Positions 2,979 to 18,030 are shown, numbered from the stretch's first letter. The stretch is 64,000 bases of DNA from Actinomycetota bacterium (GCA_028698215.1 JAQVDY010000006.1:2705-66704); one strand, 5' to 3'. A program made the numbers and translations. The notes: generated by a model not told the origin, from the sequence alone.

Positions 2979-3036
2979 AAAAAAGAGGGGAGTCAATTTT
3001 AAAAAGCCTGGACGCCACTTTTTAACGACTCCCCTC
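2979..3036 (-). terminator. Rho-independent terminator closing the long minus-strand operon that ends with the binding-protein gene.
   Basis: A 10-bp GC-rich stem GAGGGGAGTC (2985-2994) pairs with GACTCCCCTC (3027-3036), with an inner AAAAAG/CTTTTT extension. On the minus strand it is followed immediately by UUUUUU (plus-strand A-run 2979-2984). It lies ~100 nt downstream of the stop at 3135. Confidence 0.5.
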
Positions 3037-3134: not shown

Positions 3135-3956
3135 CTACTGTAGCACAAACCACTTATCATAAATTTCAGCAGCAGTTCCATCCTGGGCCATCTGGGCGAT
3201 AGCCTGGTTTATATCTTCTAATATTTGCGAATTCTTGCCCATGGCAATTACAAAATCACGCTTGGATTTAATGGTGTCCAATACCCGGTAAAGCATTCCA
3301 TCCTGGTTTAGAATATTAATGGCAATAGGCTTTGAAATTAAAACCCCCTCTATATTCTTAGCCTTAAGATCGTCCATCATAACCTTTATATCCTCATAAT
3401 CGGCTATCCTGTACCTGGCCAATACCTCTTCGGACAAGCCCTCCTTGGCGGTCCTTAATATGCCCACATCCTTGCTGGCCATATCTTCCTTAATCATTAT
3501 CTGGGTATCACTTAAACTTATCAGTAAATACTCCAAAGTATAATAGGCATCAGAATAATCAACTGCATTCTTTTTATCCTCCAAAATTGGCAGGGCAGAA
3601 ATAGCCAGGTCAATGTTGCCCGCATCCAGCTCCTGGTAAAGGGAATCATAGGCTACGGATTTTATCTCTATCTCTTTTCCCAGCCTGTTTCCGATTTCGG
3701 TAATGACATCTATGTCAAAACCTTCAGCCTTGCCCTCCTGGTTTAAAAACTCAAAAGGGGGATAGGAGGTATCTGTGCCCACTGTAAGCTTGGGAACCTT
3801 GCTTAAATCACGGCCGGTCCCATTGGCAGACATGCTGCTGGCCAGCTCGGTTACCCGGCAGCTTACTACCGGTGACATTAGTACTATTAAAACCACTAAT
3901 GCTGCGGACAGCACCAGTGCTGAAATTACTCTTTTACTCCATTTTATCTTAATCAT
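3135..3956 (-). CDS. Periplasmic/lipid-anchored substrate-binding protein of the polar amino acid type (SBP family 3). No cognate ABC permease or ATPase genes are adjacent.
   Basis: There is an N-terminal hydrophobic anchor. The motifs GTDTSYPPFEF and AEGFDIDV fit the PBPb fold pattern. Size is 273 aa. Confidence 0.6.
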   Translation of the reverse strand: MIKIKWSKRVISALVLSAALVVLIVLMSPVVSCRVTELASSMSANGTGRDLSKVPKLTVGTDTSYPPFEFLNQEGKAEGFDIDVITEIGNRLGKEIEIKSVAYDSLYQELDAGNIDLAISALPILEDKKNAVDYSDAYYTLEYLLISLSDTQIMIKEDMASKDVGILRTAKEGLSEEVLARYRIADYEDIKVMMDDLKAKNIEGVLISKPIAINILNQDGMLYRVLDTIKSKRDFVIAMGKNSQILEDINQAIAQMAQDGTAAEIYDKWFVLQ

Positions 3957-3966
3957 TACTGGTCCT

Positions 3967-5808
3967 TTAAAAAATCTCTTCCGGTTCAGGAAAACCTAAA
4001 CTATTTACAAAATATTCATTGAACTTGGGATGGGTGGTTAATTCCAAATAATTAATTTTCTTAGCCAGGTTTTCTGCTTTCTTCCTGTATTTGGATGAAA
4101 CCAAAACCTGCTTGGCCCCTACTCCGGCAGCATTACCAACCTGTACAATCTTTCCTAGATCCACCTGGGGAAACATGCCTATGTTTATGACATTCTTGGG
4201 GTCTATATAGGAGCCGAAGGCTCCGGCAATTATAATTTTGTCTATCTGGGTAAAGTCTATCTGGGCATTATCTAGCAGTATATCTATGCCCGTTCTCATG
4301 GCTCCCTTGGCCAGCTGGATCTCCACGATATCCTTCTGCCCGATAGAAACATAGTCCCGGCCTGGCTTGCCGGACAATAGATACTGCATCCCTTCCTGCT
4401 CATCTTTAAAAATACAATTAGAATCCTGGACAAACTTGCCCCTGGTATCTATAAGGTTAGCCTTTCTTAATTCGGCTATACAGTCCAGTATGCCAGAACC
4501 ACAAATACCGGAAGGCTCCTTGTCGCCTATGGTCTGAATGGAAGGCTGGCAGGTGGCTGAGTCTATGGCCACCCTTTCAATGGCCCCGGGAGCAGCCCTC
4601 ATCCCGTAACGGATATGGGCTCCCTCAAAAGCAGGCCCGGAAGCAGTGGATACACTGGTAATTCCACTGCTGGTCTTTAAGGCAATCTCGGTATTGGTGC
4701 CAATATCAATACCTATAATATTTCCCTTAAGCTGGTCAATATCTGCAGCCAAAACCATAGCCAGGTGGTCAGAACCCACAAACCCGGCAATAGGTGGAAG
4801 CAGGTAGACATATCCTCCGGGGGCAATATTTATTCCCAGCTGCCAAGCCTTAACGCTTAAAGCCTGTCCGGTTAAAGACACAAAGGGAGAAAGGCTTAGC
4901 TGCCTTACCGGCAAGCCCAGGAACAGGTGGTGCATGGCGGTATTGGCTACCAAGGTTATCTCATTTATCTGTTTCCGGTCAATCTGGTGATCCTGGCAAA
5001 GCTTTCCTATAGCCTGGTCAATACCTGAAGTAACCACTTCCTGTATTTTTTTTAGGCTGTCCCCACCTGCCAGGGCAAAATTAAGCCTGGACATCACGTC
5101 TTCACCGTAAGATATCTGGGGATTCATTATACCCCTGCTGCCCAAGGTAGCTCCGGTAGACAGGTCCACTAAAAGAGCCGCAATCTTGGTAGTGCCTAAA
5201 TCTATGGCCACGCCATAATTATGGCCAGCCTGATTTCCGCCCTCGACATTAATGATTTCTGTGCCCCGCAAGCTAACCGTTACCTTCCACCCGTTATCCC
5301 TTAAGGTTTGGGGCAGCAGCGAAAGGGCTTTAAAGTCAATATTATCAGCCTTAACCTTATAATTTTTTTCCAGCAGGCCAGCTATGCGGTCAAAGTCAGG
5401 GGTAACATCTTCCAGGGTAGCCGGGCTAACCTCCACCCAGTATTTTTGGCATACTGGATCAGGCTCTACCTCCCTGCCGGTACCGGAAACCTGTAGTTTC
5501 TGCTCTTCGCTTAAAGAAGAGGCAGGTATGTAGATATTAAGGTCCCGGTCAAATACCTGCTGGCAGGCCAGCCGTACCCCCTTGCTTATCTCTTCCGGTA
5601 AAAGAACCTTTTTTTCCTGGCCGCTTACCGCAGTATCAGCAGCATCCAGAACTATTATCCTGCACTTGCCGCAGGTTCCCTTGCCTCCGCAGACAGACTT
5701 AATGCCAATCCCTGCTTCTAATAAAGCTTCCAAGCCATTGGCAGGCCGGTCCAAGTAGAGCCTTTTTCCTATAGGCTCCACCTCTATTCTGATTTTATTT
5801 TTGGCCAT
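3967..5808 (-). CDS. RACo-type protein: an N-terminal plant-type 2Fe-2S ferredoxin domain fused to an ASKHA-fold ATPase (DUF4445-like). It is a homolog of the reductive activator of corrinoid Fe-S proteins.
   Basis: The motif CGGKGTCGKC...LACQ is a 2Fe-2S signature. DLGTTKIA and GIDIGTNTEIAL are ASKHA phosphate-1 and phosphate-2 motifs. The 613-aa length matches RACo architecture. Confidence 0.6.
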   Translation of the reverse strand: MAKNKIRIEVEPIGKRLYLDRPANGLEALLEAGIGIKSVCGGKGTCGKCRIIVLDAADTAVSGQEKKVLLPEEISKGVRLACQQVFDRDLNIYIPASSLSEEQKLQVSGTGREVEPDPVCQKYWVEVSPATLEDVTPDFDRIAGLLEKNYKVKADNIDFKALSLLPQTLRDNGWKVTVSLRGTEIINVEGGNQAGHNYGVAIDLGTTKIAALLVDLSTGATLGSRGIMNPQISYGEDVMSRLNFALAGGDSLKKIQEVVTSGIDQAIGKLCQDHQIDRKQINEITLVANTAMHHLFLGLPVRQLSLSPFVSLTGQALSVKAWQLGINIAPGGYVYLLPPIAGFVGSDHLAMVLAADIDQLKGNIIGIDIGTNTEIALKTSSGITSVSTASGPAFEGAHIRYGMRAAPGAIERVAIDSATCQPSIQTIGDKEPSGICGSGILDCIAELRKANLIDTRGKFVQDSNCIFKDEQEGMQYLLSGKPGRDYVSIGQKDIVEIQLAKGAMRTGIDILLDNAQIDFTQIDKIIIAGAFGSYIDPKNVINIGMFPQVDLGKIVQVGNAAGVGAKQVLVSSKYRKKAENLAKKINYLELTTHPKFNEYFVNSLGFPEPEEIF

Positions 5809-6226
5809 GCTTCTCAGATTCTTCCTTTATAAACTGTTCGAACTCAGGCCCAGCTTTCATCAGGTTGGCTAAGTCTTCATCCAGGTTGTCCGGTTTTATC
5901 TTAGCTATCCAGCCTTCATCATAAGGAGACTCATTGATGAGCTCCGGTTCATCTTCCAAATCTTCATTTACCTCTACTATTTCTCCGGTAACCGGGGCAT
6001 AAAGCTTGCCTACCCATTTGCCTGATTCCAGGCTGGAAAAAGGCTTGCTCTGCTCTACCTTGGCTCCGGCCAGGGGCAGCTCTATATAGACTATATCACC
6101 AGCCAGTTTCTGGAAGAAATCAGTAGCTCCCATAATTACCATGCCGTCGTCATCTGCCTTGGCCCAGAAATGGTTTTTTTCATAATAAAGGTCATCTAAA
6201 AATTCATATCCTGCTATTTCCATCAT
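5795..6226 (-). CDS. Glycine-cleavage H-protein-like lipoyl-carrier protein.
   Basis: The segment SLESGKWVGKLYAPVTGEIVEVNEDL aligns with the H-protein lipoyl site ESVKAASD(V)YAPVSGEVVEVNE, including the lipoyl-lysine. Size is 143 aa. Confidence 0.6.
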   Translation of the reverse strand: MMEIAGYEFLDDLYYEKNHFWAKADDDGMVIMGATDFFQKLAGDIVYIELPLAGAKVEQSKPFSSLESGKWVGKLYAPVTGEIVEVNEDLEDEPELINESPYDEGWIAKIKPDNLDEDLANLMKAGPEFEQFIKEESEKHGQK

Positions 6227-6232
6227 TTCCTC

Positions 6233-7423
6233 CTATTTTTTGCTTTCCAAACTATTTAATACCAGTTCGGCTATATCCCAGACCTTAATTTTTTTATTAA
6301 GGTCTTTTTTCTTTTTCTTCAATGCGGTAGATATGGTTCGCTCACACTGCTGGCAGCCCGATATTACCACGTCCGCATCCGTTTCTATTATCTCCCGGGC
6401 TTTACTGCCGGCAATTTCAGCCGCCAGGTCCGCATCCAGCGATTCCAGGTTGCCGCCTCCGCCGCAGCAATTAGCCTTAGCCCTGTTTTTGGCCAGCTCT
6501 ACAAACTGCAGCCCCGGCACCGCCCCTATAACTTCCCTGGGTTCCTCAAATACCCCCGAGTTTCTGCCCAGGTCACAGGGGTCATGATAAGTAACTTTAA
6601 TGTCCATGGGACCCAGGTCCAGCCTGCCCTCTTTTATCAGGGACAGCAGGTACTGGGATATGTGCATAACCTCAAAATCCATATCCTCTCCTGCCAGCTG
6701 GCTGTATTCATGCTTCCAGGTATGGTAACAGGAAGGGCAGGAAGTTACAAGAATTTTTGCTCCTTTTTGCTTAACCGTGGCTATGTTAAACCGGGCCAGC
6801 TCCCTGGCTTCCTCTTCCATCCCCGCTGAAAGCAGGGGAAATCCGCAGCACCATTCCTGTTCTCCCAGCAAGGTAAAATCCACTTCAGCCTGCTGGAAAA
6901 TCTGGATAATGGACCGGGGAATGGAAAAGGTGCGGGGTGAAAAAGAAGAGACACAGCCCACAAAGTAGACCACTTCCGCCTTATCCTTTAGAAATTGCTC
7001 CGGCTCTGCCCCCGGAAGCTGCTTTACCCAGTCAGCCCGCCCTTCATTGGTATCAAAGGTCACATTATGGCCTTCTGCTATACGTTTTTTTAACATATCC
7101 AGAACTTCCGGATAACGGTGGCTGTCCACCAGGTCCAGCCGGGCTGCTTTAAATATTTCCTTTAAATCTACCCCGCTGGGGCATTCATTGGCACAATAAT
7201 TACACAGGGTACAGGTATAAATCTTTTTTGAAATTTTATCCGTATAGCCAATAGTCCCTTTTTCTACCGCTTCCAATAAGCTTAATTTCCCCCGGGGAGT
7301 AACACTTTCATCCAAAGTCTGCTTGTAAATAGGACAAACTGCCAGACAGTTGCCGCACCTGCTGCAGTTAAACAGGGCGTCGGACAGGTTAGCTATATTT
7401 ATTTTTGATTCTTTTTTTACCAT
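6233..7423 (-). CDS. Fe-S oxidoreductase subunit with two 4Fe-4S ferredoxin motifs and two CCG (HdrD/GlcF/LutA-type) domains. It is a likely partner of the adjacent FAD lactate dehydrogenase.
   Basis: The motifs are CSRCGNCLAVCP and CTLCNYCANECP, followed by CCGFP and CCGGGG CCG motifs. Confidence 0.65.
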   Translation of the reverse strand: MVKKESKINIANLSDALFNCSRCGNCLAVCPIYKQTLDESVTPRGKLSLLEAVEKGTIGYTDKISKKIYTCTLCNYCANECPSGVDLKEIFKAARLDLVDSHRYPEVLDMLKKRIAEGHNVTFDTNEGRADWVKQLPGAEPEQFLKDKAEVVYFVGCVSSFSPRTFSIPRSIIQIFQQAEVDFTLLGEQEWCCGFPLLSAGMEEEARELARFNIATVKQKGAKILVTSCPSCYHTWKHEYSQLAGEDMDFEVMHISQYLLSLIKEGRLDLGPMDIKVTYHDPCDLGRNSGVFEEPREVIGAVPGLQFVELAKNRAKANCCGGGGNLESLDADLAAEIAGSKAREIIETDADVVISGCQQCERTISTALKKKKKDLNKKIKVWDIAELVLNSLESKK

Positions 7424-7445: not shown

Positions 7446-8825
7446 TTAACTGTCAAAATACATTTTGCCTGGATTCAAGATATTATCAGGGTCAAACGCT
7501 TTTTTAACCCTTTTCATCAGGCCGAAAACATCATCGCTTATTTCCATCTTAAGGTACTTGGCTTTGCTGATGCCGATGCCATGCTCACCGGACAGGGTCC
7601 CTCCCAGGGCAATAGTGGCTTCAAATATCTCTTCAATGACCTTTTCCACTTTTTCCTGCTCCTCCGGTATCCTCAGATCGGTAAGCAGGGTGGGATGCAG
7701 GTTTCCATCCCCGGCATGGCCAAAAGTGCCAATCATCATATCATATTTCTGGGCTATGGCATTAACTGCCTCTACCAGTTCCACTATCCTGCTGCGGGGA
7801 ATGGTGGCATCTTCCAATATAGTAGATGGTTTAACCCTGGCCAGCGAAGACAAGGCCGCCCTGCGCGCCGCCCATATGGTATCCCTTTCCTGGGCCGATG
7901 TAGCTACCTGGCAGGATGATGCATTATTTTTCTGGCAGACCTTCTTTACCGTTTCTGCTTCCGCTTCCACCGCTCCCTGCTGCCCGTCTACCTCTATCAG
8001 CAGCATGGCCCCTATACTCCTGTCCAGGCCTATGCCCAGATAGTCTTCAATGGCATTTATGGTCACATTATCCACAATTTCCAAGGTGGCGGTGATAATT
8101 CCCTCCGCCACTATATCCCTTACTGTCTGGGCCGCATCAGTAAGCTGGCCAAACAAAGCCAGCAGGCTGGCCCTGGCCGGAGGTACCGGAAGCAGTTTTA
8201 AGGTAGCCCTGGTAACAATACCCAAGGTACCTTCTGAACCAACTATAAGGTCCTTTAAATTATAGCCGGTCACCCCTTTGACCGTCCTGGTTCCCAGGTT
8301 AACTATCTCCCCGGTAGGAAGCACCACTTCCATGCTGCTGACATAATCCTTGGTTACCCCATACTTCAGGCCTCTCAGCCCCCCGGCATTTTCAGCAATA
8401 TTTCCTCCAATGGTAGAGCAATTCATACTCCCCGGATCGGGAGGATAAAAAAGATTATACTTTCTGGCAGCCAGGTCGACCTCTTCAGTAATGGCCCCTG
8501 CCTCTGCCTCTATTAGCAGGTCCACCGGGTTGACCTCAAAAATACGGTTCATGTTAACCGTGGCCAGTATCAGTCCCCCTTTTACCGGCAGGCAGCCGCC
8601 GCTTAACCCGGTAGCTGCTCCCCGGGGAGTAACCGGGATGCCCTCCTGGTAGGCCAGCTTCATTACCTGGCTGACCTGTTTTGCATTCTGGGGTCTTACC
8701 ACCGCCTCCGGAAGGTACTCCAGGCGGGTGGAATCATAGCTAAAAGCAATCATATCCTCCGGATCAGTAAACACAAAATCCTGGCCGACAATTTCCTGTA
8801 ATTGTTGCAGATACTTTTTTTTCAT
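7446..8825 (-). CDS. FAD-linked oxidase of the GlcD / D-lactate dehydrogenase (Dld-II/LdhA) type.
   Basis: There is an N-terminal FAD_binding_4 pattern (PRGAATGLSGG) and a C-terminal FAD-oxidase_C pattern (GHAGDGNLH). Size is 459 aa. Confidence 0.7.
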   Translation of the reverse strand: MKKKYLQQLQEIVGQDFVFTDPEDMIAFSYDSTRLEYLPEAVVRPQNAKQVSQVMKLAYQEGIPVTPRGAATGLSGGCLPVKGGLILATVNMNRIFEVNPVDLLIEAEAGAITEEVDLAARKYNLFYPPDPGSMNCSTIGGNIAENAGGLRGLKYGVTKDYVSSMEVVLPTGEIVNLGTRTVKGVTGYNLKDLIVGSEGTLGIVTRATLKLLPVPPARASLLALFGQLTDAAQTVRDIVAEGIITATLEIVDNVTINAIEDYLGIGLDRSIGAMLLIEVDGQQGAVEAEAETVKKVCQKNNASSCQVATSAQERDTIWAARRAALSSLARVKPSTILEDATIPRSRIVELVEAVNAIAQKYDMMIGTFGHAGDGNLHPTLLTDLRIPEEQEKVEKVIEEIFEATIALGGTLSGEHGIGISKAKYLKMEISDDVFGLMKRVKKAFDPDNILNPGKMYFDS

Positions 8826-8880: not shown

Positions 8881-10161
8881 CTATTTTTTTAGAAATGGCA
8901 TAACATAAGGCCCTTCTGGAATTACGGTAACTTTTGCATCTTTCCCATACCGGGCAAACCCAATATCTAAAGCTTCCGAAACCGAATTAACCAATTTAAG
9001 GGTATCTTCAGGTATACCCTGGCCGCAGTCCGTCAGGCAATGGCTGTACAAATATATCTCCGCTTTTTTCCTGGCCTTTGCCAGCTCTTCCAGCTCCCAC
9101 TGGTCTATTTTAAAATAGTCGGTATTGCAGATCCTGTCCATGAACCGGCCTAAATCCTTTTCTGATTTTAGGAGCTGTGTAAATTCCTGGCTGCCTATTT
9201 CCTGGATGCACTGGGCAGCAATAATTATCATGCCGTCCTGTTTTACCGCAGGCAGGCAGCCTACCATGCCTTTTACAGCCTGATAGACATTTACATCCAG
9301 GGGCAGGCCGCCTCCGGTAGTAATAACTATATCTGCCTCCTGGCTAATTTCTGCCCTGCTGGACTTAAGGCAGAACTCTGCCCCCTGCCGGTGGGCCGTT
9401 ACCAGGTCACCGCAGAATATGCCGGTAACCTGCTTTTCCTTGTTAATAGTCACATTTACTATAAAATCTACCCCTGCTTTCTTTGCTATTTCAGTAGCCT
9501 CTTCATGGAAGGGATTGCCGTCCAGCACCCCGGTGGTGGAATGGCTGGACTCCAGTATGGCCGGGCCATGAAAGTATTTAAACATATCCATATAGCTAAT
9601 GCCGGGGCATATGGATTTTCTTCCTCCAGAAAAACCGGCCATAAAATGGGGTTCGATCAAGCCGGTTAAAATTTTAAAGTCAGCTTTTAGGTAATTCTTA
9701 TTTAAAATGACGGGAGTGCCCTGGGAAGTCTGCCCAATATCCTGGCAAGACTGACGGTCCCGGGCATCATGATTTATAATGCGGTAGGTTTCAGCTATGT
9801 TTTTGCCTACCAGCTGTTCTAACTCTTTACCTACATTGGGCCGGTGCAGCCCGGTAGCAATGAGTATGGTAATGTTTTCCCGGGCTATGCCATAGCTTTC
9901 CAGCTCCGCCAGAAGCACCTCTAAAATCAACCGGGTAGGCACTGCCCTGGTGGAATCTGAAATAATGATACAAACATCTTTTTTGCCTGCCACCAGTTTC
10001 TCCAGCGGCTGGCTGTCAATGGGGTTTTTAATACTTTCAGCGATTTTCTGCTCAGGATGGTCCACCGGTTTAGTGGGCCTGGTTTCCAGCACATACAGCA
10101 GGTTCCTTTCCGGAACCTCTACCTCTAGTTTGGTATTGCCGTAATCTAGTTTTATTCCCAT
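8881..10161 (-). CDS. larA: Nickel-pincer-nucleotide-dependent lactate racemase family protein (LarA / DUF2088).
   Basis: A 426-aa protein with LarA-like N- and C-terminal domain patterns, and the conserved His/Lys-rich segments typical of LarA. larBCE are not in the window. Confidence 0.55.
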   Translation of the reverse strand: MGIKLDYGNTKLEVEVPERNLLYVLETRPTKPVDHPEQKIAESIKNPIDSQPLEKLVAGKKDVCIIISDSTRAVPTRLILEVLLAELESYGIARENITILIATGLHRPNVGKELEQLVGKNIAETYRIINHDARDRQSCQDIGQTSQGTPVILNKNYLKADFKILTGLIEPHFMAGFSGGRKSICPGISYMDMFKYFHGPAILESSHSTTGVLDGNPFHEEATEIAKKAGVDFIVNVTINKEKQVTGIFCGDLVTAHRQGAEFCLKSSRAEISQEADIVITTGGGLPLDVNVYQAVKGMVGCLPAVKQDGMIIIAAQCIQEIGSQEFTQLLKSEKDLGRFMDRICNTDYFKIDQWELEELAKARKKAEIYLYSHCLTDCGQGIPEDTLKLVNSVSEALDIGFARYGKDAKVTVIPEGPYVMPFLKK

Positions 10162-10164
10162 AAT

Positions 10165-10713
10165 TTACATTATTGCCCTATACAAATCCTTATGTGGTGA
10201 TGCTATTACCCTGTAATCTACTAAAAAATCTTTTTCCCGGGCATAAGATATGGCTGCCGAAATTGATTCATTAACTGAAGATACATCACCATTGATTATG
10301 ACCATATTTTTGCCGCCAATAGCCCTGGCGATCCTTATCTCTACCAGGTCTACCGATGTAGCTTTAACCGCAGCATCCGCAGCCACGATAATAGAAGGCG
10401 AAGTAAGGGTTTCTACCACGCCTATGGACTTCCATTCCTTTACCTCCGAAGCCTGGTTGATAGCAGAAAACAGCTCGGGGTAAACATTGGATACAGCCCC
10501 ATAATCTATGATAAAGTTTTCATTTTCATCTACTACTACCTGCAGGGAATTGGATACAGCGCTAACGCTGCCCGCAAATACAATATAATATTTTCCCGGA
10601 CAGATGGTTTTAGCATCCAATATCCTTACATCTGAGGCCTTGACCAGAGTATCTATGGCCCCAATTCCAATAGCAATACTGCGAAACTCTACAATTCCAA
10701 TAGACTTTTCCAT
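10165..10713 (-). CDS. BMC-T shell protein (tandem BMC domains, PduT-like). It carries the conserved pore cysteine for a 4Fe-4S cluster.
   Basis: There are two BMC domains. The motif KTICPGKYYIV matches PduT KTICPGKF around Cys38. Confidence 0.7.
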   Translation of the reverse strand: MEKSIGIVEFRSIAIGIGAIDTLVKASDVRILDAKTICPGKYYIVFAGSVSAVSNSLQVVVDENENFIIDYGAVSNVYPELFSAINQASEVKEWKSIGVVETLTSPSIIVAADAAVKATSVDLVEIRIARAIGGKNMVIINGDVSSVNESISAAISYAREKDFLVDYRVIASPHKDLYRAIM

Positions 10714-10732
10714 TAATCTAATTCCGCCCTAT

Positions 10733-11104
10733 CTATTTTTTGTTTTTCTTCTTTCCGCCGCTTACCTTGGCCGGTTTTTCCTGTTTACGGCTTCGTGACC
10801 GGGGAAAAGTGCCCTTGCCGTCACGAACCATCTTGCCCGATATAATTTTTTCCAAATCAGGATGAGGCCTGGGTATTATATGTACACTTATGATTTCTCC
10901 AATCCTCTTGGCTGCTGCTGAGCCTGAGTCCAAAGCAGCCTTAACTGCGCCTACATCGCCGGATATGATTACGGCAGCATAACCGCTGCCTACATAAGCC
11001 TTGGATATAAGCTTAACATTGGCCGCCTTTACCATAGCATCTGCAGCTTCGGTGGCCCCCACCAGTCCCCTGGTTTCAATAAGTCCTATTGCTTCCCCGT
11101 TCAT
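10733..11104 (-). CDS. BMC-H shell protein (PduA/EutM-like) with a ~30-aa Lys/Arg-rich C-terminal tail.
   Basis: The sequence [32 protein letters not shown]...[11 protein letters not shown] is canonical BMC-H. The tail is [28 protein letters not shown]. Confidence 0.8.
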
Positions 11105-11128
11105 CGGTTAAAATCTCCTTTCAAAGCC

Positions 11129-12547
11129 CTATTTCACAAAGTTCATAGAGCGGTACATAGTTATTTTTCGCTGCCTGGTGAAAGTCCTGGGGGTGGTATG
11201 CCCTTCCCCGGTAGCACCAGCCAGGGTCCAGGATGTTCCGCCTGTGGCCAGGGTTCCGGCGCTTCTTTGAGAAGCCCCGTTGACAATAAAATTAGTAGTG
11301 CCGATCTTCTGGCCATAATAGGTTATACGGCTCAGGTCTTTGGAATGGACCATAGCGGTATGCCTGAAACCATGCTCTACTTCACAGGCCATATCTACTG
11401 CCTGCTCAAAGGTATCTGCAATCAATATGGGCACTATGGGCATAAGCTGCTCATGCTGTACCAGCGGATGGGAAATGGAATCTGCCACAAACACCGCCAG
11501 CTTAACCGAGTTGTCCACATTGATGCCTGCCTGCTGCAGGATTACCGGGCAATCCTTGCCCATCAATGGTTTAACTATCTCTCCATCTTTTACTACCAGA
11601 CCGGTTACCTTGGCAGCCTGATCCGGGTTTAGTACCACTGTCTTGTTTTTAGCAATGGCAGAAAGGAACCTGTCAGCCACGCTTCTCAGTACAATAATTA
11701 CCTTCTCGTCATTACACAATATATTGTTGTCAAAAGCAGCTCCAAAGGCGATTTCGCTGGCTGCCAGTTCGATATCTGCGGTATCGTCTACCACTGCCGG
11801 CGGATTGCCGGGTCCGGCGCCAATAGCCTTCTTGCCGCTCTTCATAGCCATATCCACTATCTGGGGCCCCCCGGTAGCACAAATTAAATTTATATCCGGG
11901 CTTTTAAACACGGCAGCTGCATTCTGCATCTTGGCTTCCCTGGTAGCGGTAATAAGGTTGGGAGGCCCGCCGGCATCCACTATAGCCTTATGAACTACCT
12001 TAAAGGATTCCAGGGTACACTTATTAGCTGCCGGATGAGGCAGGAATACCACTGAGTTTCCTGCGGAAACCATGATTATAGTATTATTGATAACCATGGG
12101 AGTAGGGTTGGTCATAGGAGTTATAGCCCCTATCACTCCCCATGGAGCCATCTCGAAAGTCTGGGTTCCGTCATCACTGCTAAAAGTGGTAACTTCCAGC
12201 TCTTCGGGACCCACTGTCCAATCGATAGCCACTCTTACCTTTTCTTTTTTATCCTCAAAGTTGCCCATCTTGGTTTCATCTACACTTAACCTGGCAAAGT
12301 TTTCTATATGCTTTCTGCATTCCCTGCGGATTGAATCCACTATCTTGTAGCGGATATCTTTACCCATAGCGGATAGTTGCTGTTGAGCTACTTTTGCTGC
12401 CTTTATGGCATCCTCAATATTATCAAACAAACCATCAGCAGAGGTAACCACAGATGAAGCCTTAAGGCTGGTAGAATTTTGGCTAACCGAAAGGTTATCC
12501 ACCACACTTCTTACTATTCTCTCTACGGTTTTTTCATCTATAGCCAC
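11129..12547 (-). CDS. CoA-acylating aldehyde dehydrogenase (PduP/EutE-like) with an N-terminal encapsulation peptide.
   Basis: It is ALDH-superfamily throughout, with the catalytic Cys region ILCNDEKV. The N-terminal amphipathic helix EKTVERIVRSVVDNL, followed by a Ser/Thr linker, resembles the PduP encapsulation peptide. Confidence 0.75.
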   Translation of the reverse strand: MAIDEKTVERIVRSVVDNLSVSQNSTSLKASSVVTSADGLFDNIEDAIKAAKVAQQQLSAMGKDIRYKIVDSIRRECRKHIENFARLSVDETKMGNFEDKKEKVRVAIDWTVGPEELEVTTFSSDDGTQTFEMAPWGVIGAITPMTNPTPMVINNTIIMVSAGNSVVFLPHPAANKCTLESFKVVHKAIVDAGGPPNLITATREAKMQNAAAVFKSPDINLICATGGPQIVDMAMKSGKKAIGAGPGNPPAVVDDTADIELAASEIAFGAAFDNNILCNDEKVIIVLRSVADRFLSAIAKNKTVVLNPDQAAKVTGLVVKDGEIVKPLMGKDCPVILQQAGINVDNSVKLAVFVADSISHPLVQHEQLMPIVPILIADTFEQAVDMACEVEHGFRHTAMVHSKDLSRITYYGQKIGTTNFIVNGASQRSAGTLATGGTSWTLAGATGEGHTTPRTFTRQRKITMYRSMNFVK

Positions 12548-12581
12548 ATCTTACCCCCTGTAAATTTCATTACTTTGTAAA

Positions 12582-13583
12582 TCAATTGATCTTAATACCT
12601 CTTTCTTTTGCTTCGTCTCTAGCCAGCGGGGTTAATATAACATTGGGGCCCAAAGTTATGCCGGTATCCCTGTACTGGTCCAGGTCATCTGCAGTAATTA
12701 CCAGTTTTCTGCCATTGCTGCTTTCAGGAGCCGATGGCACTTCTATTGTCTGGGCCTGGTCATTAGCAGAGCTTGAATTGATGCTTTTCAGTACATTGAT
12801 ATCAGTGATCTCTCCTGCATAACTGCCGTCAGGAATCTCCGGGGGAGTCCCATTGGCATTAGCCATCTGCGGCGCAATAGGGGCAATACAGGAAGCATCA
12901 ACTACTTCTACCAAGCTGCCGTTAACAATATCAGCCGCATTGGCATCATCAGTATCCACATGCATCTCAGTTTTAAAATCAGGAGCAACCCTTACCTGCA
13001 CATTATTAAAGGTAAGGCCTTTTGGCCCGGGTACCCTTACATCAACTTCATCATTGTCTTTTAGGCCAAAGTAGTTGGCATCCTCGGTACACATATGTAT
13101 GTGACGGTTTGCCCTTATGACCCCTTCTTTTAGATAAACCACGCCTTTAGGTCCCACAATCACCGCGGAGGAAGTGCCCTCCAGCTTGCCGCTGGGCTTA
13201 ACCGGGGCGTCTACCCCCAATATGATGCAGTCAGTTTTAGCCAACTCCACCTGTGACCTGTCCCTTAAAGGCCCCAGGATCCTCACATTCTGCAGGGCAT
13301 TAAGTTTAGGTCCTACCACTGTGACTGTTTCTTTGGCTGCAAATCCGGGGTTATAAAGTTCCCTTAAGGGAGTAAGCTTGTAGCCCTTGCCAAACAATGT
13401 ATCCAAATCTTCCTGGCAAAGGTGGACATGCCTTACTGATACCCCGCATACTATTTTCCTGTTACCTGTTTTTACCTGTCCCATATCCTGGCTAGCAACC
13501 GCCTTCTGAGGTACTTTTGGCTCGGACTGCAGTTTTTCCATTACGCTAATAACCACATCCCGAATTAGTTTTTCGGTATCCAC
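12582..13583 (-). CDS. PduL-type phosphotransacylase with an N-terminal encapsulation peptide and an uncharacterised ~110-aa C-terminal extension.
   Basis: There are two PduL repeats with the motifs RHVH and RHIHM. The N-terminal helix is EKLIRDVVISVMEKL. The C-terminal segment RKLVITADDLDQYRDTGITLGPNVILTPLARDEAKERGI is not part of canonical PduL. Confidence 0.7.
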   Translation of the reverse strand: MDTEKLIRDVVISVMEKLQSEPKVPQKAVASQDMGQVKTGNRKIVCGVSVRHVHLCQEDLDTLFGKGYKLTPLRELYNPGFAAKETVTVVGPKLNALQNVRILGPLRDRSQVELAKTDCIILGVDAPVKPSGKLEGTSSAVIVGPKGVVYLKEGVIRANRHIHMCTEDANYFGLKDNDEVDVRVPGPKGLTFNNVQVRVAPDFKTEMHVDTDDANAADIVNGSLVEVVDASCIAPIAPQMANANGTPPEIPDGSYAGEITDINVLKSINSSSANDQAQTIEVPSAPESSNGRKLVITADDLDQYRDTGITLGPNVILTPLARDEAKERGIKIN

Positions 13584-13625
13584 TTTAAAATACCTCTCTT
13601 TTATTTAACAATAAATAATTTTGGC

Positions 13626-13901
13626 TTATTCACTAGGTAAAATCAGGTCCAGATCCTGATGAGGTCTAGGAATAACGTGAACTGAGAGAAGTTCTCCTAC
13701 CCTTTTTGCGGCAGCAGCACCAGCGTCAACAGCTGCCTTTACTGCGCCTACGTCGCCTTTAACTATAACTGTTACCAAGCCGCCGCCGATTCTTTCCTGG
13801 CCCATCAAGGTAACATTTGCAGCTTTAACCATTGCGTCAGCTGCTTCTACTGATCCTACTAGTCCTCTGGTTTCGATTAAACCAATTGCTTCTCCTGCCA
13901 T
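13626..13901 (-). CDS. BMC-H shell protein (PduA/EutM-like).
   Basis: The sequence [32 protein letters not shown]... is canonical BMC-H. Size is 91 aa. Confidence 0.85.
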
Positions 13902-13974
13902 TTTTGTTTCTCCTTTTTTATCTTATGGTTTACGAATTTATAATTATAAACAAAAATAAATATTTTAGTAGTGT

Positions 13975-14769
13975 TTATTTATTATTATCCAATATATTAG
14001 ACACTATTTTAGTTATCAGCCTGGACAGCTCATCCTTGGTCATAGTGATGGTGTCCCCGCTTCTGCCAGCCCCGGTCTCCGGGCCCAGCTGCTCTGAATT
14101 TATCCTGCATCCTGCATAATGCTGGTCCATTCCCCATTCCTGCCTGAGCTTTAGCATCTTTTCCACATTTTCCTTATCTATTAAGTTAATCTGTCCCAAC
14201 TGCCTGGCCACCAGGTAAATCTTGGCAAACAGCTCCATGCTCTCCATCCGGTAATAAGCCTGGTATACATCTGAGCCTATAGACAGAGCCCCATGGTTTT
14301 CCAGTAAAAAAGCATTATGATGGGGCAGGTACTCCCGGATATTATTAGGTATCTCTTCCGTGGAAGGGGTTCCATATTTGGTGAGAGGTATGGATCCCAA
14401 AGCTATAACCACTTCCGGAATAACACACTGGTCCAAAGCCATCCCTGCACAGGCAAAACCAGTAGCTGTAGGGGGATGGGCATGTACCACTGACCCCACA
14501 TCCGGCCGGTTTTTATAAACATCCAGATGCATCTTGATTTCTGAAGAGGGCTCCAGCTCCCCTTCCAGCTTACGTCCTTCCCCATCTACCTTAATCAGCT
14601 GGTCGCTGGTAAGATAGCCCTTACTTCTTCCGGTAGGGGTGCATAGGTACAGGTTATTATCCATCTTAACCGATACATTGCCGTCATTGGCAGCTACCCA
14701 GCCCTGGGCATATACCCTATGGCAGATCTCTATAATGTCTTTCCTGTGCTCGCTCTCGCTTTTAGTCAT
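13975..14769 (-). CDS. Class II aldolase/adducin-family enzyme (fuculose/rhamnulose-phosphate-aldolase-like) with a C-terminal encapsulation peptide.
   Basis: The segment VVHAHPPTATGF has the class II aldolase zinc-binding H-x-H motif. A ~45-aa C-terminal extension ends in the amphipathic helix TKDELSRLITKIVSNIL. Confidence 0.65.
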   Translation of the reverse strand: MTKSESEHRKDIIEICHRVYAQGWVAANDGNVSVKMDNNLYLCTPTGRSKGYLTSDQLIKVDGEGRKLEGELEPSSEIKMHLDVYKNRPDVGSVVHAHPPTATGFACAGMALDQCVIPEVVIALGSIPLTKYGTPSTEEIPNNIREYLPHHNAFLLENHGALSIGSDVYQAYYRMESMELFAKIYLVARQLGQINLIDKENVEKMLKLRQEWGMDQHYAGCRINSEQLGPETGAGRSGDTITMTKDELSRLITKIVSNILDNNK

Positions 14770-14792
14770 TTAACTTCCTTTATTACATATAA

Positions 14793-15368
14793 TTAACATC
14801 TACACATGGCTGACGTAAGCCACCTTAATACCTGGGGATCTGGATTAGCTATGACCTTCTGGCCGATTAAAGCTCCCTTTTCTGCCAGGTACTCTGAGGC
14901 CACCCTTACTGCTTCCTGCACTGCAGCCAGCTGGCCGGTTATTACAAAAAAGCTGTTAACCCCGCATCCCCGGGCCAGCCTGAAATCCATAAACTCCACT
15001 TCCGCCGTGTCCACTGTAATATCTGCAGCATTGATAAGATAAGCCATCTGCATTGATTCCACTATCCCTATCGCTCCCAGCACCGCCGGGCTGATCTTAC
15101 CGCTTATGGCCCCTATGACCTTGGCATCTATACCCCCTATAATCTCGGTGCTGTACAGATGCTTGCCCCCCATATTTACCGCTACCTCCACAGAAGTATC
15201 CAGGGCATCCATCTCTCCCTCTACCAGGGTAAGGTATTTCCCCGGACAAAGGGAAGTGGCTACCAGCAGGTTAACCTGGGAAGCCTTTATCAGGCTGTCG
15301 GTAACCTCTACGCCCCTGGCTATGCTTTTAAACTCCATTACTGCTATATTTCCGATATTGTCTTTCAT
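14793..15368 (-). CDS. BMC-T shell protein (tandem BMC domains, PduT-like) with a conserved pore cysteine.
   Basis: There are two BMC domains. The motif TSLCPGKYLTL corresponds to the PduT Cys38 region. Confidence 0.7.
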   Translation of the reverse strand: MKDNIGNIAVMEFKSIARGVEVTDSLIKASQVNLLVATSLCPGKYLTLVEGEMDALDTSVEVAVNMGGKHLYSTEIIGGIDAKVIGAISGKISPAVLGAIGIVESMQMAYLINAADITVDTAEVEFMDFRLARGCGVNSFFVITGQLAAVQEAVRVASEYLAEKGALIGQKVIANPDPQVLRWLTSAMCRC

Positions 15369-16699
15369 TATCCTTTACCTATCTCCACATAATCAGAAGT
15401 TATGTTTAGCACTTTTCCGCTGATGGAGCTGTGGATCCTGGCTCCCAGTTTACCTTGGGGTATATCTGCTACCAGGCCGCCTTCCGGTACCAAATCGCCC
15501 ACTTTCACCACTGGAGATGAAGGCGCTCCTACGTGCTGGCTGAAATAAAGCTTGACTTGTTCCACCTTCCCGGTAAAATCTACCAGCTCAGTTTCAGGAT
15601 AATGGTCTATTTCCAGCCTTTGCCTAAGCCTGCTTACCGGAATCTTGCGGTAAGCCTTAAATTCATTGGCTTCTAAATCCTTCCTCTGGTGAGGATTCTT
15701 GATCCCCCTCTTGGCCAGCTCCACTTTAAGATGGTTGAAAATAGCCCGGGGAGAAAGGTCCACTATGCAGGCATACAGTTCACACAAGCCGCAGTCGCAG
15801 CATAAATAGGCATAATCGAAATTTTCTATATCCTGTTCATTTAGCTCTCCCTTGTACAGCCTCTTCATCATCTCATCAGGGAAAAGATCATGCCCTAACA
15901 GGTAGCGGGGGCATAGGTCAGTGCACATCCTGCAGCTAAGGCAGGCTGCCTGGCCCCTTTTGATCTGGCCTGAGGCTGACCTATTTTTCTGTACAGTCAC
16001 TATATTGTCTGCAGGCAGCACCATTATGGACTTGGTGGTTTTCTTTACTGCATAACTGTCCTGGTCAATCAGCTTGCCCATCATGGGACCTCCGTCATAG
16101 ACGGCGTATTCATCCGCAGTTATGCCTCCCACATAATCCAATAATAGTTTGACCGGGGTGCCTACCGGCACCTTTATGGTGGTTGGATTGGCAACTTCCC
16201 CGTTTAAGGTAACATATTTCTGGGTAACCTTGATTCCCTTGACCGCCTGGGCCACATTAAGCAGGGTTTCCACATTTATAACTACACAACCCACCATCAG
16301 GGGAATGCCCCCTTCCGGGACAATCCTGCCCGTAGCTTCATACACCATAGTCTGCTCATCACCTGCCGGGTAGAAATTCCCCATCTTGCAAAGCTCAAAA
16401 TCAAAGCCCTTTTTCTGGTAGCTTTCGATGGCAGCAATAGCTTTTTTGTATTTGGCTTTCAGGGCAATGATTACCCTTTTAGCGCCAGTAAGGTTAGCAG
16501 CAATTTTTAACCCTTCCAGCACTGTAGCAAATTCCTTTTCCAGCAACTGTTTGTCCACATCGATTAACGGCTCGCATTCAGCCGCGTTTACTATAAGGTT
16601 TTCAATTTTGGCATCCAGTTTTACATGAGTGGGAAAACCTGCGCCTCCGGCACCAACTACGCCGGCATCCTTGATACTATCAATTTCTTTACTTGCCAT
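15368..16699 (-). CDS. PduS/RnfC-like flavo-Fe-S oxidoreductase (NADH-binding plus two 4Fe-4S clusters).
   Basis: It has an RnfC-type N-terminus (VVGAGGAGFPTHVKL) and the cluster motifs CLSCRMCTDLCP and CCDCGLCELYAC. Size is 443 aa. Confidence 0.65.
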   Translation of the reverse strand: MASKEIDSIKDAGVVGAGGAGFPTHVKLDAKIENLIVNAAECEPLIDVDKQLLEKEFATVLEGLKIAANLTGAKRVIIALKAKYKKAIAAIESYQKKGFDFELCKMGNFYPAGDEQTMVYEATGRIVPEGGIPLMVGCVVINVETLLNVAQAVKGIKVTQKYVTLNGEVANPTTIKVPVGTPVKLLLDYVGGITADEYAVYDGGPMMGKLIDQDSYAVKKTTKSIMVLPADNIVTVQKNRSASGQIKRGQAACLSCRMCTDLCPRYLLGHDLFPDEMMKRLYKGELNEQDIENFDYAYLCCDCGLCELYACIVDLSPRAIFNHLKVELAKRGIKNPHQRKDLEANEFKAYRKIPVSRLRQRLEIDHYPETELVDFTGKVEQVKLYFSQHVGAPSSPVVKVGDLVPEGGLVADIPQGKLGARIHSSISGKVLNITSDYVEIGKG

Positions 16700-16700
16700 A

Positions 16701-16967
16701 TTACTCCAAATCTATTTTGTCAACTTTTGCCACTATGGCAGCATCGACATTTTTTTTACGGGTAATTTCAGTTCTTTTTGCCGTACTGCCCGTCACAATT
16801 AATCCAATTTCCCCCTCACCCAGGCCTACGGTGTCTACCGCCACAAAATATTCCGGCCTGCGGCTCAAATCTGTTTCCAGGCACTGTACCAGAAGTATCT
16901 TAAAACCTTCCAGGGTAGGGTCCTTTATAGTGGACGTAACTTTTCCTATTACTTTTACCAATCTCAT
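16701..16967 (-). CDS. BMC-P vertex pentamer protein (EutN/PduN/CcmL family), paralog type A.
   Basis: An 88-aa protein with the EutN_CcmL pattern (MRLVKVIGKV...VAVDTVGLGEGE...IVAKVD). Confidence 0.75.
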   Translation of the reverse strand: MRLVKVIGKVTSTIKDPTLEGFKILLVQCLETDLSRRPEYFVAVDTVGLGEGEIGLIVTGSTAKRTEITRKKNVDAAIVAKVDKIDLE

Positions 16968-16973
16968 AACTAT

Positions 16974-17264
16974 TCATCCGTTAATCACTTTGCCACCCTC
17001 AAGGTCAATACTGTCTACCAGCCCTACTATGCAGCCCCTTATGGGTATACTCCTGATACCCATAACCTTGCAGATAGTAACCCCGTTTTCAATCCAGTAG
17101 ACCAGGCTTCCTGAAGCAGCATTAAGGTAATCAGCCACAATTATCTTCCTGCCCCGGGTCCTGCCGTCAGGATCCAATGGCTCCAGCACCAAAAGCTTTA
17201 TTCCCTGCAGCCTTTCGTGCTTACTTGTGGACACTACATTGCCTATTACCTTACCCAGCCTCAT
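16974..17264 (-). CDS. BMC-P vertex pentamer protein, paralog type B.
   Basis: A 96-aa protein with the EutN_CcmL pattern (MRLGKVIGNVVST...). Confidence 0.7.
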   Translation of the reverse strand: MRLGKVIGNVVSTSKHERLQGIKLLVLEPLDPDGRTRGRKIIVADYLNAASGSLVYWIENGVTICKVMGIRSIPIRGCIVGLVDSIDLEGGKVING

Positions 17265-17265
17265 C

Positions 17266-18030
17266 TTAAAATATTACCTCTATTTGGTGTTGTTTAAAAA
17301 GATCAATATAACCAGCCTGTGGTTTCTTGTCTGTAATTATAGTATTAATGTCAGCCATTAGGCAAACCCTATTTAACGTGACCTTGCCAAATTTAGAGCT
17401 GTCCATAAGCAATACGGCCCTTGCCGAATTTTTAATTATAGAACGCTTTATAAAAATATTGTAGGGGTTGGGTTCAGTTACCCCTGCATCCAAAGATATG
17501 CCGGCGGCAGATATAAAGCAAAAGTCTAAATTTATGTCTTTCAGCAAGCCTGCTGCCAGAACCCCGTAAAAACTATTGGTCAGCATGTTGAGCTCGCCCC
17601 CGGTAGAAACCACCTTGATTTCAGGATTACCCTTAAGCTCATTTATGATTTCCAGCCCGTTGGTAATCACAGTTATATCGGGAATACCTTTAAGCCTGCG
17701 GGCCAGGGCCAGGCAAGTAGTAGAGCCATCTAAAAAAAGGCTGTCTCCCTTGCTAACCAAAGCAGTAGCCTTGGCCGCTATAATATCTTTTTCAGCAGTA
17801 TGTATCCTGTCCCGGAATTTGCTGGGAATCTCATGGGAGGAATCATTTAGGGCCAGGGCTCCCCCGTATACCCTTTTTAATACCCCTTCTTTTTCCAAAA
17901 CCGCCAGGTCCCTTAATACCGTCATTTCCGAAACATTGAACATGTCTGAAAGTTCGGAGGTCTTGATGCGGCCGTCCTTGTTTATAATCTTGGCGATTTC
18001 CAACTTTCTTTCTGCTGAAAGCATATCCAA
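17266..18030 (-). CDS. DeoR-family transcriptional regulator (HTH_DeoR plus DeoRC sugar-phosphate-binding domain).
   Basis: The N-terminal HTH is SELSDMFNVSEMTVLRDLAVLEKEG. The C-terminal DeoRC pattern is present. The annotated start is TTG; an internal ATG at 18024 is the more likely start. Confidence 0.75.
   Translation of the reverse strand: MDMLSAERKLEIAKIINKDGRIKTSELSDMFNVSEMTVLRDLAVLEKEGVLKRVYGGALALNDSSHEIPSKFRDRIHTAEKDIIAAKATALVSKGDSLFLDGSTTCLALARRLKGIPDITVITNGLEIINELKGNPEIKVVSTGGELNMLTNSFYGVLAAGLLKDINLDFCFISAAGISLDAGVTEPNPYNIFIKRSIIKNSARAVLLMDSSKFGKVTLNRVCLMADINTIITDKKPQAGYIDLFKQHQIEVIF

Follow-up and report, generated by a model that had tools for sequence, protein, structure and literature searches.

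Organization of the locus

The region under study occupies positions 3,135 to 6,226 of a 64,000-nucleotide stretch of DNA from an Actinomycetota bacterium (GCA_028698215.1, JAQVDY010000006.1:2705-66704), the whole of which was analysed and is referred to here as the window. It encodes a GcvH-like lipoyl carrier, a RACo-type ferredoxin-ASKHA ATPase and a family-3 solute-binding protein (SBP3), which a preliminary description, made from the sequence alone, had presented as appended to a set of lactate dehydrogenase genes. The three open reading frames (ORFs) and the terminator that follows them were all found where that description had placed them, on the minus strand (Table 1). The strength attributed to the terminator was borne out by folding, which confirmed the hairpin (z -4.1) and its U-run; a consensus terminator scan had missed this hairpin because its loop is long.

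The three genes make up the 3' tail of a minus-strand operon of about 15 kb that ends at this one terminator. The operon order is DeoR, EutN, a PduS/RnfC-like flavo-iron-sulfur protein, BMC-T, class II aldolase, BMC-H, PduL, acylating aldehyde dehydrogenase, BMC-H, a second BMC-T, LarA, GlcD, GlcF, GcvH, RACo and SBP3, and its microcompartment part had been absent from the earlier account of the array. Pfam scans covering most window ORFs of at least 90 aa, including all long minus-strand ORFs, detected no corrinoid protein, no GcvT, GcvP or GcvL, no ABC permease or ATPase, and no methyltransferase except folP/DHPS (dihydropteroate synthase). With this last exception, the reported absence of corrinoid, methyltransferase and glycine-cleavage P, T and L genes was thereby confirmed.

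Comparative analysis of the GlcD-GlcF-GcvH cassette

The comparative analysis relied on about 17 related Actinomycetota loci, gathered from genomes, metagenomes and contig look-ups, on each of which the window proteins were mapped. Class A loci (L007, L094, L105) lack the microcompartment-lactate island and present the order AcsB-AcsC-Fhs-FolD-(radical SAM, M56 peptidase, BlaI on the opposite strand)-RACo. SBP3-AcsE comes next in L007 and is missing from this place in L094 and L105. Pfam confirmed the identity of the Acs genes in L105. In class B (L004, L106), bacterial microcompartment (BMC) genes precede LarA-RACo-SBP3(-AcsE), LarA directly adjoining RACo, and in class C (L001) they precede LarA, a natural GcvH::RACo fusion, SBP3 and AcsE. 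The full order of the window defines class D (L008, L009, L087, L092, L095, L098, L104 and the P0120 contig). This neighbourhood check hence identified the LarA-GlcD-GlcF-GcvH-RACo-SBP3 order in at least eight other loci, and the block is conserved as a unit.

The iron-sulfur subunit with CCG domains had been reported to lie right before the H-protein-like gene, and in the window GlcF does end 6 nt upstream of GcvH. The same adjacency was observed in 11 loci, with gaps of 6-130 nt. Eleven loci have GlcD, GlcF and GcvH together, five (classes A and B) have none of the three, and L001 is the single exception. In this locus, the decayed remains of a GlcF C-terminus, spread over two frames, are still encoded in a 371-nt gap ahead of GcvH (E 1.6e-10), indicating that GlcDF were deleted there. 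Between class D loci, pairwise identity is 10-14 points higher for GcvH than for RACo. This excess is absent in pairs with L001, and at three positions the L001 GcvH alone deviates from a residue that is invariant elsewhere. Since both departures are seen in a locus that has lost GlcDF, the constraint on GcvH seems to depend on these two genes.

Both CCG motifs of GlcF (C...CCG...CxxC, twice) are complete. GlcD scores 515.8 bits against TIGR00387 (glcD), below the cut-off of 567.9, and GlcF scores 76 against a glcF cut-off of 333; the best curated relative of the latter is TfrB (197, cut-off 385), the B subunit of thiol:fumarate reductase, a CCG protein that works on thiols.

The cassette was also found beyond these loci. 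In a Desulfitibacter-like, Firmicutes-type context (L112/L113), the order is GlcD-GlcF-GcvH-Lpl(AB)-LipT-like-LipS2-LipS1. The carrier of L112, 50% identical to that of the window, presents the same residue signature and falls in a cluster that also contains a protein from Desulfitibacter sp. The accompanying lipoylation genes score 241 > 230 for LipS1, 229/270 for LipS2 and 186 > 158.8 for a geranylgeranyl-reductase-family flavoprotein (LipT-like), and the lipoate ligase includes an LplB part. Furthermore, the top match in a search of 1.8 billion cluster representatives with GcvH was P0361, an Anaerolineae protein of 1391 aa, present in two independent assemblies, that fuses three H-like domains to GlcD and GlcF. 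L112 and P0361 both associate an H-like protein with GlcDF and have no RACo. Across the three systems the CCG subunit is 38-43% identical and the FAD subunit 24-37%, as would be expected if the CCG subunit and the carrier formed a common electron-output module behind different dehydrogenases.

The behaviour of GlcD-GlcF-GcvH as one cassette across loci supports the pairing of the CCG subunit with a lipoyl carrier. The partnership between the H-like protein and this subunit, already proposed in the preliminary description, is consistent with their joint presence and absence, the lipoylation gene set of L112, the P0361 fusion and the clade-wide loss of a substrate pocket described below. As judged from these sequences, the three genes are inherited and lost as one cassette, and their pairing is a previously undescribed one that occurs in three phyla.

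Two genomic contexts were recorded alongside these results. In the clade of GlcF paralogues nearest to the window protein, a conserved recF-(277-aa ORF without Pfam match)-CCG protein-dciA-gyrB-gyrA order occurs in three unrelated contigs (L107, L108, L109), the paralogue gene region lying at about 6100-8540 in L107. Upstream of the triad in L112 (363-5203) lie a methyl-tetrahydrofolate (methyl-THF):corrinoid methyltransferase-like gene, an energy-coupling factor transporter (CbiQ and two ATPases) and an aldo-keto reductase. The occurrence of a gene of the methyltransferase (MeTr) type near the triad on two occasions may be a coincidence.

Sequence signature of the GcvH-like carrier

The 143-aa H-protein homolog had been described as keeping the lipoyl-lysine context. 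In agreement with this, it matches GCV_H with an E-value of 1.3e-42, and its ESGK motif aligns with the ESVK of solved H-proteins (1ONL, 1DXM), to which it is 40-50% identical. The protein also passes the relevant NCBIfam cut-offs (TIGR00527, 130.4 > 115.85; NF002270, 146.3 > 117).

Comparison with the 121 members of its clade, using pea numbering for Glu14 and Asp67, revealed that the lipoyl lysine is kept in every member and that its surroundings have changed. Glu14 is replaced by Phe (119/121) or Tyr (2/121), the residue following the lysine is always Trp, the Ser at position +3 is Gly in all 121 sequences, and the Asp at +4 is Lys (105/121) or Arg (16/121); in the window, the resulting signature reads HFW and K-W-V-G-K. 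In the Escherichia coli H-protein, the equivalent residues (Glu12/14, Ser67, Asp68) retain the aminomethyl-lipoate arm and subsequently let it go (PMC7733448). The whole clade has thus lost the acidic aminomethyl pocket, and the GcvH-like protein looks like a lipoyl carrier that gave up aminomethyl transport. Genes for GcvT, GcvP or GcvL were found neither in the window nor in any related locus. The 143 residues include no cysteine, so the protein falls outside LbpA as strictly defined by Cao et al.

The exhaustive search of cluster representatives indicated that the K-W-x-G type constitutes a broad H-protein subfamily, and a plasmid search with GcvH returned canonical gcvH genes only. Other multi-domain H-protein relatives were observed among the cluster representatives (P0480, P0494; P0366, P0372, P0458, P0508), consisting of fusions of a DGC domain with GCV_H and of proteins with two or three tandem GCV_H domains.

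RACo and SBP3 in Wood-Ljungdahl gene clusters

The RACo architecture assigned to the 613-aa fusion of a 2Fe-2S ferredoxin and an ASKHA ATPase was recovered by Pfam as Fer2, RACo_linker, Raco_middle and RACo_C_ter. Residues 8-607 align with residues 6-620 of a solved corrinoid activator (3ZYY, E 4e-106), and the cluster ligands Cys40/46/49/82 and the ASKHA motifs are invariant in 32 orthologs. The NCBIfam AcsV score is 426 bits against a cut-off of 800, the model being a narrow one of type 'exception'. RACo homologs at 55-68% identity are abundant in Actinomycetota metagenome-assembled genomes, and the closest one among GTDB representative genomes is 66% identical.

RACo is also found without any lactate or microcompartment gene, inside AcsB-AcsC-Fhs-FolD...RACo(-SBP3-AcsE) clusters. 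AcsB-AcsC lie upstream of its orthologs in the three class A loci, and the 264-aa gene that follows SBP3 in L001, L007, L008, L087, L090, L104, L106 and the P0120 contig is AcsE (2YCI, E 1e-67; 1F6Y, E 1e-56). More distant RACo clades (41-50% identity) adjoin methyl-THF methyltransferase, B12-binding and MT1-type genes. The Wood-Ljungdahl pathway is known from the lineage of the window (PMC7325909), and the simplest reading is that RACo would be the ordinary activator AcsV of the corrinoid iron-sulfur protein (CoFeSP) of a Wood-Ljungdahl organism. A nearby CoFeSP or methyltransferase gene had been anticipated as a conventional explanation of RACo. Such partners are present in the orthologous loci, in the form of AcsB-AcsC and AcsE, but not inside the window. 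The inclusion of RACo and of the binding protein in a lactate module is not supported, since RACo orthologs occur in Wood-Ljungdahl clusters that lack lactate and microcompartment genes, and the proposed activation system for the lactate enzymes found no support. The adjacency of LarA and RACo in L004 and L106 also suggested RACo as a LarA reactivase, a candidate that was rejected because RACo orthologs occur without LarA inside CO dehydrogenase/acetyl-CoA synthase (CODH/ACS) clusters.

SBP3 matches SBP_bac_3 (E 3.8e-33) and carries a lipoprotein signal. Its lipobox residue Cys33 is invariant in eight orthologs, placing the protein outside the cytoplasm. It was previously singled out as an orphan, and no permease or ATPase gene was indeed found in the window or beside SBP3 in the related loci. 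Among the close relatives, only L094 and L105 do not have SBP3 behind RACo, and the two genes adjoin in L007, which has no microcompartment or lactate genes; SBP3 hence travels with RACo and not with the lactate genes. The region under study accordingly spans what is, from its gene content, the predicted junction of two co-transcribed units, the GlcD-GlcF-GcvH cassette on one side and RACo with SBP3 on the other. A longer variant of the activator was noted in L012 (1385-4234), where an N-terminal extension brings the called RACo ORF to 711 aa and a gap of 288 nt separates it from GcvH, a gene with which RACo usually overlaps in the other loci.

Position of a microcompartment-lactate island

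The window retains Fhs, FolD and BlaI orthologs in the order seen in L007, directly upstream of DeoR, and BlaI likewise lies just ahead of DeoR in L001. The microcompartment-lactate island therefore lies exactly between blaI and RACo. In a neighbour-joining tree of RACo, classes A to D are intermixed, and the island or parts of it must therefore have been gained or lost more than once. The plus-strand segment 18254-19028 encodes the BlaI-like repressor and then a 123-aa ORF without Pfam match, at a position where a radical SAM gene and a complete M56 (BlaR-like) peptidase gene are found in island-free relatives; this ORF may be a remnant.

Table 1. Coordinates, strand and supporting evidence of the genes and features of the window
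Feature	Coordinates	Strand	Evidence
Intrinsic terminator	2979..3036	-	fold -27.1 kcal/mol, z -4.08, then UUUUUU
Family-3 solute-binding lipoprotein SBP3, 273 aa	3135..3956	-	SBP_bac_3, lipobox
RACo/AcsV-type [2Fe-2S] ferredoxin-ASKHA ATPase, 613 aa	3967..5808	-	Pfam architecture, 3ZYY alignment
GcvH-like single-domain lipoyl carrier (predicted), 143 aa	5795..6226	-	Pfam GCV_H
GlcF-like Fe-S subunit, two [4Fe-4S] ferredoxin motifs and two CCG domains	6233..7423	-	Pfam CCG x2 and Fer4
GlcD-like FAD-dependent D-2-hydroxyacid dehydrogenase subunit, probably D-lactate	7446..8825	-	FAD_binding_4 and FAD-oxidase_C
LarA-type nickel-pincer 2-hydroxyacid racemase	8881..10161	-	Lar_N and LarA_C
PVM-like microcompartment locus	10165..18030	-	Pfam; same order in L001, L004, L009, L087, L092, L095
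BlaI-like repressor	18254-18640	+	69% identical to L007 gene
FolD	19235-20158	-	74% identical to L007 gene
Fhs	20189-21910	-	84% identical to L007 gene

The microcompartment genes have the composition of the PVM-like type, with class II aldolase, aldehyde dehydrogenase, PduL, BMC-H/T/P shell genes and DeoR, and no alcohol dehydrogenase. In PVM and GRM5 organelles, the aldolase releases lactaldehyde, which is converted into lactyl-CoA and lactyl phosphate. The LarA motifs LHRP, EPH, GGRK and HGP are all present when aligned to 9EID, a broad-spectrum lactate racemase and the closest solved structure (E 3e-107), and we take the nickel-pincer nucleotide-binding and catalytic residues to be His108, His174, Lys184 and His200 (Lactiplantibacillus plantarum numbering). 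Its NCBIfam score of 433 is slightly below the cut-off of 460, and larB, larC and larE were not found in the window. The placement of a dehydrogenase after a lactate racemase fits D-specific oxidation, and LarA followed by a D-specific GlcD-type FAD dehydrogenase would make up a coherent route from L-lactate to pyruvate.

Both BMC-T proteins (10165-10713 and 14793-15368) carry a PduT-like C-P-G-K motif, whose cysteine is presumably the ligand of a pore [4Fe-4S] cluster, and the PduS/RnfC-like flavo-iron-sulfur gene spans 15368-16699. Together with the missing alcohol dehydrogenase, these features suggest that NAD+ is regenerated by electron export through the shell. A FGGY-family sugar kinase, a candidate rhamnulo- or fuculokinase, is encoded about 27 kb from the microcompartment locus (44952-46466, minus strand), and no sugar isomerase was seen in the window.

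Downstream of the operon, an AT-rich spacer contains two 86-nt direct repeats (2294-2379 and 2692-2777; 97% identical), each of which starts with a terminator-like hairpin (AACCGGC...GCCGGTT and a T-run). A large SpaA/DUF5979 surface-protein gene (3-2261, minus strand) runs past the window start and presents a perfect 300-nt duplication (83-382 and 980-1279, at a spacing of 897 nt). In four other assemblies, the contigs that belong to this organism all stop soon after SBP3, probably because of the repeats in the region.

Proposed mechanism and alternative explanations

With a confidence slightly better than even, we propose that LarA, GlcD, GlcF and GcvH make up a route for electrons from lactate to a lipoyl group, and that RACo separately repairs the CoFeSP. 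The gene content, synteny, co-occurrence, fusions and residue signatures on which this proposal builds were observed directly in the loci compared. The microcompartment, through its aldolase, acylating aldehyde dehydrogenase and PduL, would yield L-lactate from a deoxy-sugar phosphate, and LarA would racemise it to D-lactate. The FAD subunit GlcD would oxidise D-lactate to pyruvate, and the electrons would run via both [4Fe-4S] clusters of GlcF to the pair of CCG domains in the same subunit, where the lipoyl disulfide on the dedicated H-protein-like carrier would be reduced. The dihydrolipoyl carrier would then be re-oxidised by an enzyme encoded elsewhere, most simply a dihydrolipoamide dehydrogenase generating NADH. 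Independently, RACo would spend ATP on the transfer of an electron from its [2Fe-2S] cluster to CoFeSP in the inactive Co(II) state, and SBP3 would act as a surface binding protein. For this scheme we infer the substrate, the direction of electron flow, the lipoylation of the carrier and the identity of the re-oxidising partner, as well as each of the chemical steps.

Several observations weigh against this assignment. By textbook values, the D-lactate/pyruvate couple has a potential of about -190 mV and free lipoamide one of about -290 mV; the transfer is therefore about 100 mV uphill and would depend on removal of the product or on a potential shifted by binding to the protein. Genes for lipoate ligase, lipoate synthase or Lpd were not found in the window. 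Neither AcsE after SBP3 nor AcsB/AcsC before Fhs was detected in it by tblastn with AcsB, AcsC, AcsE, radical SAM and BlaR queries, for which only Fhs, FolD and BlaI were matched. The three H-like domains of P0361 lack the lipoyl lysine, and the fusion therefore points to physical association and not to lipoyl chemistry. The nearest clade of GlcF paralogs (49-52% identity) has no GlcD or GcvH adjoining, a context that neither supports nor contradicts the pairing, and the triad was sampled in only three independent contexts. In addition, the stop of GcvH overlaps the start of RACo in the window (by 14 nt) and in L008, L087 and L095 (-14 to -62 nt), the two proteins are naturally fused in three assemblies, L001 among them, and acetogenic Clostridium species present the order cooC1-acsD-acsC-acsE-acsB-gcvH-acsV (PMC5651825; PMC4600107).

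These last three points would fit GcvH serving RACo instead of GlcDF, for instance as the physiological reductant of its [2Fe-2S] cluster, its adjacency to GlcF being then a by-product of the position of the island. A dgcvH-dacsV strain exists (PMC12723745), and the role of gcvH in the clostridial clusters is acknowledged to be unknown (PMC5039349). The equation of GcvH-RACo with the clostridial gcvH-acsV pair, with an incidental GlcF neighbour, was in fact our working hypothesis, and was dropped as the preferred explanation in view of the gene context of L112, the fusion in P0361 and the faster evolution of the fused GcvH. All five RACo loci without GlcDF also lack GcvH, an H-like protein accompanies GlcDF without RACo in L112 and P0361, and the substitutions of the fused GcvH at otherwise invariant positions look like relaxed constraint after GlcDF loss. 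We thus regard service to RACo as unlikely, and keep an electron path from GcvH to RACo as a minority possibility that does not exclude the lactate-to-lipoyl route. A single machine comprising all five genes, in which RACo would reduce or activate the lactate enzymes or the carrier at the expense of ATP, with SBP3 for delivery or sensing of the substrate, could account for the one operon and one terminator, for the direct LarA-RACo contact in L004 and L106, and for a LarA-(GlcD-GlcF-GcvH)-RACo-SBP3 order that is stable although RACo is only 56-68% identical between loci. This is very unlikely, given that RACo orthologs nested in the same clade lie in a CODH/ACS cluster without LarA, GlcDF, GcvH or microcompartment genes, that AcsE follows SBP3 in most relatives, and that SBP3 is an extracytoplasmic lipoprotein; the ATP cost per electron would also make a catabolic role uneconomic. 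Finally, the gcvH equivalog and subfamily scores, the identity to solved H-proteins and the presence of Fhs and FolD 13 kb upstream could indicate an ordinary glycine-cleavage or glycine-synthase H-protein, kept near these genes as part of C1 metabolism and with no special link to its neighbours. This would be a very unlikely outcome for a protein in which Glu14, Ser+3 and Asp+4 are replaced in 121/121 clade members, which is accompanied by no gene for a T, P or L protein either in the window or in related loci, and whose gene is gained and lost together with GlcDF.

Significance

To our knowledge, lipoate has very few roles: in the 2-oxoacid dehydrogenases and acetoin dehydrogenase, in glycine cleavage and, as recognised since 2018, in sulfur oxidation by sHdr. 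If the lactate-to-lipoyl route holds, a lipoyl carrier for a lactate-type FAD/CCG dehydrogenase would add a further one, and would name an electron acceptor for many 'GlcDF/HdrD-like' enzymes of anaerobes without quinones or coenzymes M and B (CoM/CoB). The signature H-F/Y-W … G-K-W-x-G-K/R separates these carriers from true glycine-cleavage H-proteins, both of which annotation pipelines call GcvH. The locus also places a fucose/rhamnose-type microcompartment with LarA within a Wood-Ljungdahl cluster of uncultured Actinomycetota, which bears on how these putative acetogens dispose of the electrons of sugar oxidation, and offers a lead on the long-unexplained gcvH and lpdA genes of acetogen Wood-Ljungdahl clusters.

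More tentatively, and with the expectation that it will sooner prove wrong than right, the results can be joined in a broader reading. GlcD-GlcF-GcvH might represent the first counterpart of sHdr-LbpA in carbon metabolism and stand for a widespread class of FAD/CCG dehydrogenases (so far Actinomycetota, Firmicutes-type, Chloroflexota) with a dedicated, cysteine-free lipoyl carrier as acceptor and, in some lineages, its own LipS1, LipS2 and sLpl(AB) genes, and the reduced carrier might also feed RACo in the present locus. If so, lactate oxidation would be coupled to the reactivation of the Wood-Ljungdahl corrinoid protein, and this coupling would hint at why gcvH adjoins acsV in acetogens.

Comparison with known systems

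By its logic, the nearest known system would be sHdr-LbpA, with which the window has in common a CCG iron-sulfur protein encoded beside a single-domain GcvH-like lipoate-binding protein. The analogy drawn in the preliminary description holds for this pairing, and fails for HdrA, HdrC, the sulfur transferases and the LbpA cysteines, none of which has a counterpart here. HdrA, HdrB1/B2, HdrC1/C2, DsrE and TusA were not found in the window by Pfam, the partner of the GlcD FAD dehydrogenase is a CCG protein belonging to the GlcF/TfrB type, and the substrate would presumably be a 2-hydroxyacid and not sulfur. LbpA has two conserved cysteines, one N-terminal and one C-terminal (PMC6067878), and sHdr-LbpA systems have a dedicated lipoate assembly set of sLpl(AB), LipT, LipS2 and LipS1 (PMC6067878, PMC10332631). 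The L112 homolog shares Lpl(AB), LipT-like, LipS2 and LipS1 genes after its carrier gene, whereas the window has none of them. A literature search combining GcvH with GlcF, GlcD or HdrD returned only the Ehe hydrogenase-HdrB-GcvH cluster of Culexarchaeia, for which the GcvH lipoyl group was proposed, from genomes, as a disulfide substrate of HdrB/CCG in the absence of CoM/CoB (PMC9723716). That cluster is archaeal, tied to a membrane hydrogenase and devoid of a GlcD-type dehydrogenase, and is likewise a genomic proposal. No published description was found of a GlcD-GlcF-H-protein cassette, or of LarA or RACo in microcompartment loci.

The window RACo shares its four-part architecture with Carboxydothermus hydrogenoformans RACo (3ZYY/4C1N) and AcsV, with which it aligns end to end, with invariant cysteine ligands and ASKHA motifs and with orthologs encoded alongside AcsB, AcsC, Fhs, FolD and AcsE. 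It differs from them in being co-transcribed with a microcompartment/lactate operon, with no corrinoid gene nearby, and its relatives have a lipoprotein gene wedged between the activator and AcsE. As in the clostridial gcvH-acsV pair (PMC4600107, PMC5651825), the H-protein gene lies immediately upstream of the corrinoid activator; compared by gene order, GcvH here tracks GlcDF and not RACo, and no lpdA is adjacent.

The PVM-like type was defined by Axen 2014 (PMC4207490) by a class II aldolase, aldehyde dehydrogenase, PduL, shell proteins and DeoR, usually without alcohol dehydrogenase. With such loci (PMC4207490; PMC8217296) the window has in common the aldolase as signature enzyme, the aldehyde dehydrogenase, PduL, DeoR, the BMC-H/T/P proteins and the lack of an alcohol dehydrogenase. 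It differs in a 3' end that bears LarA and GlcD-GlcF-GcvH and in being embedded in a Wood-Ljungdahl cluster. LarA and DUF4445 are unmentioned in Axen 2014 (PMC4207490) and Sutter 2021 (PMC8217296), and literature searches for microcompartment with DUF4445, and for microcompartment with lactate racemase and aldolase, returned no papers.

Dehydrogenases of the GlcDF/Dld-II type, which act on D-lactate or glycolate, likewise combine a FAD_binding_4/FAD-oxidase_C subunit with a subunit that carries two ferredoxin motifs and two CCG domains. Their acceptor is usually taken to be a quinone, or unknown, and not a lipoyl protein. The window pair departs from them in that neither subunit reaches the curated glcD and glcF cut-offs, and in the presence of a third gene, for a predicted lipoyl carrier, which appears to be inherited and lost with the other two.

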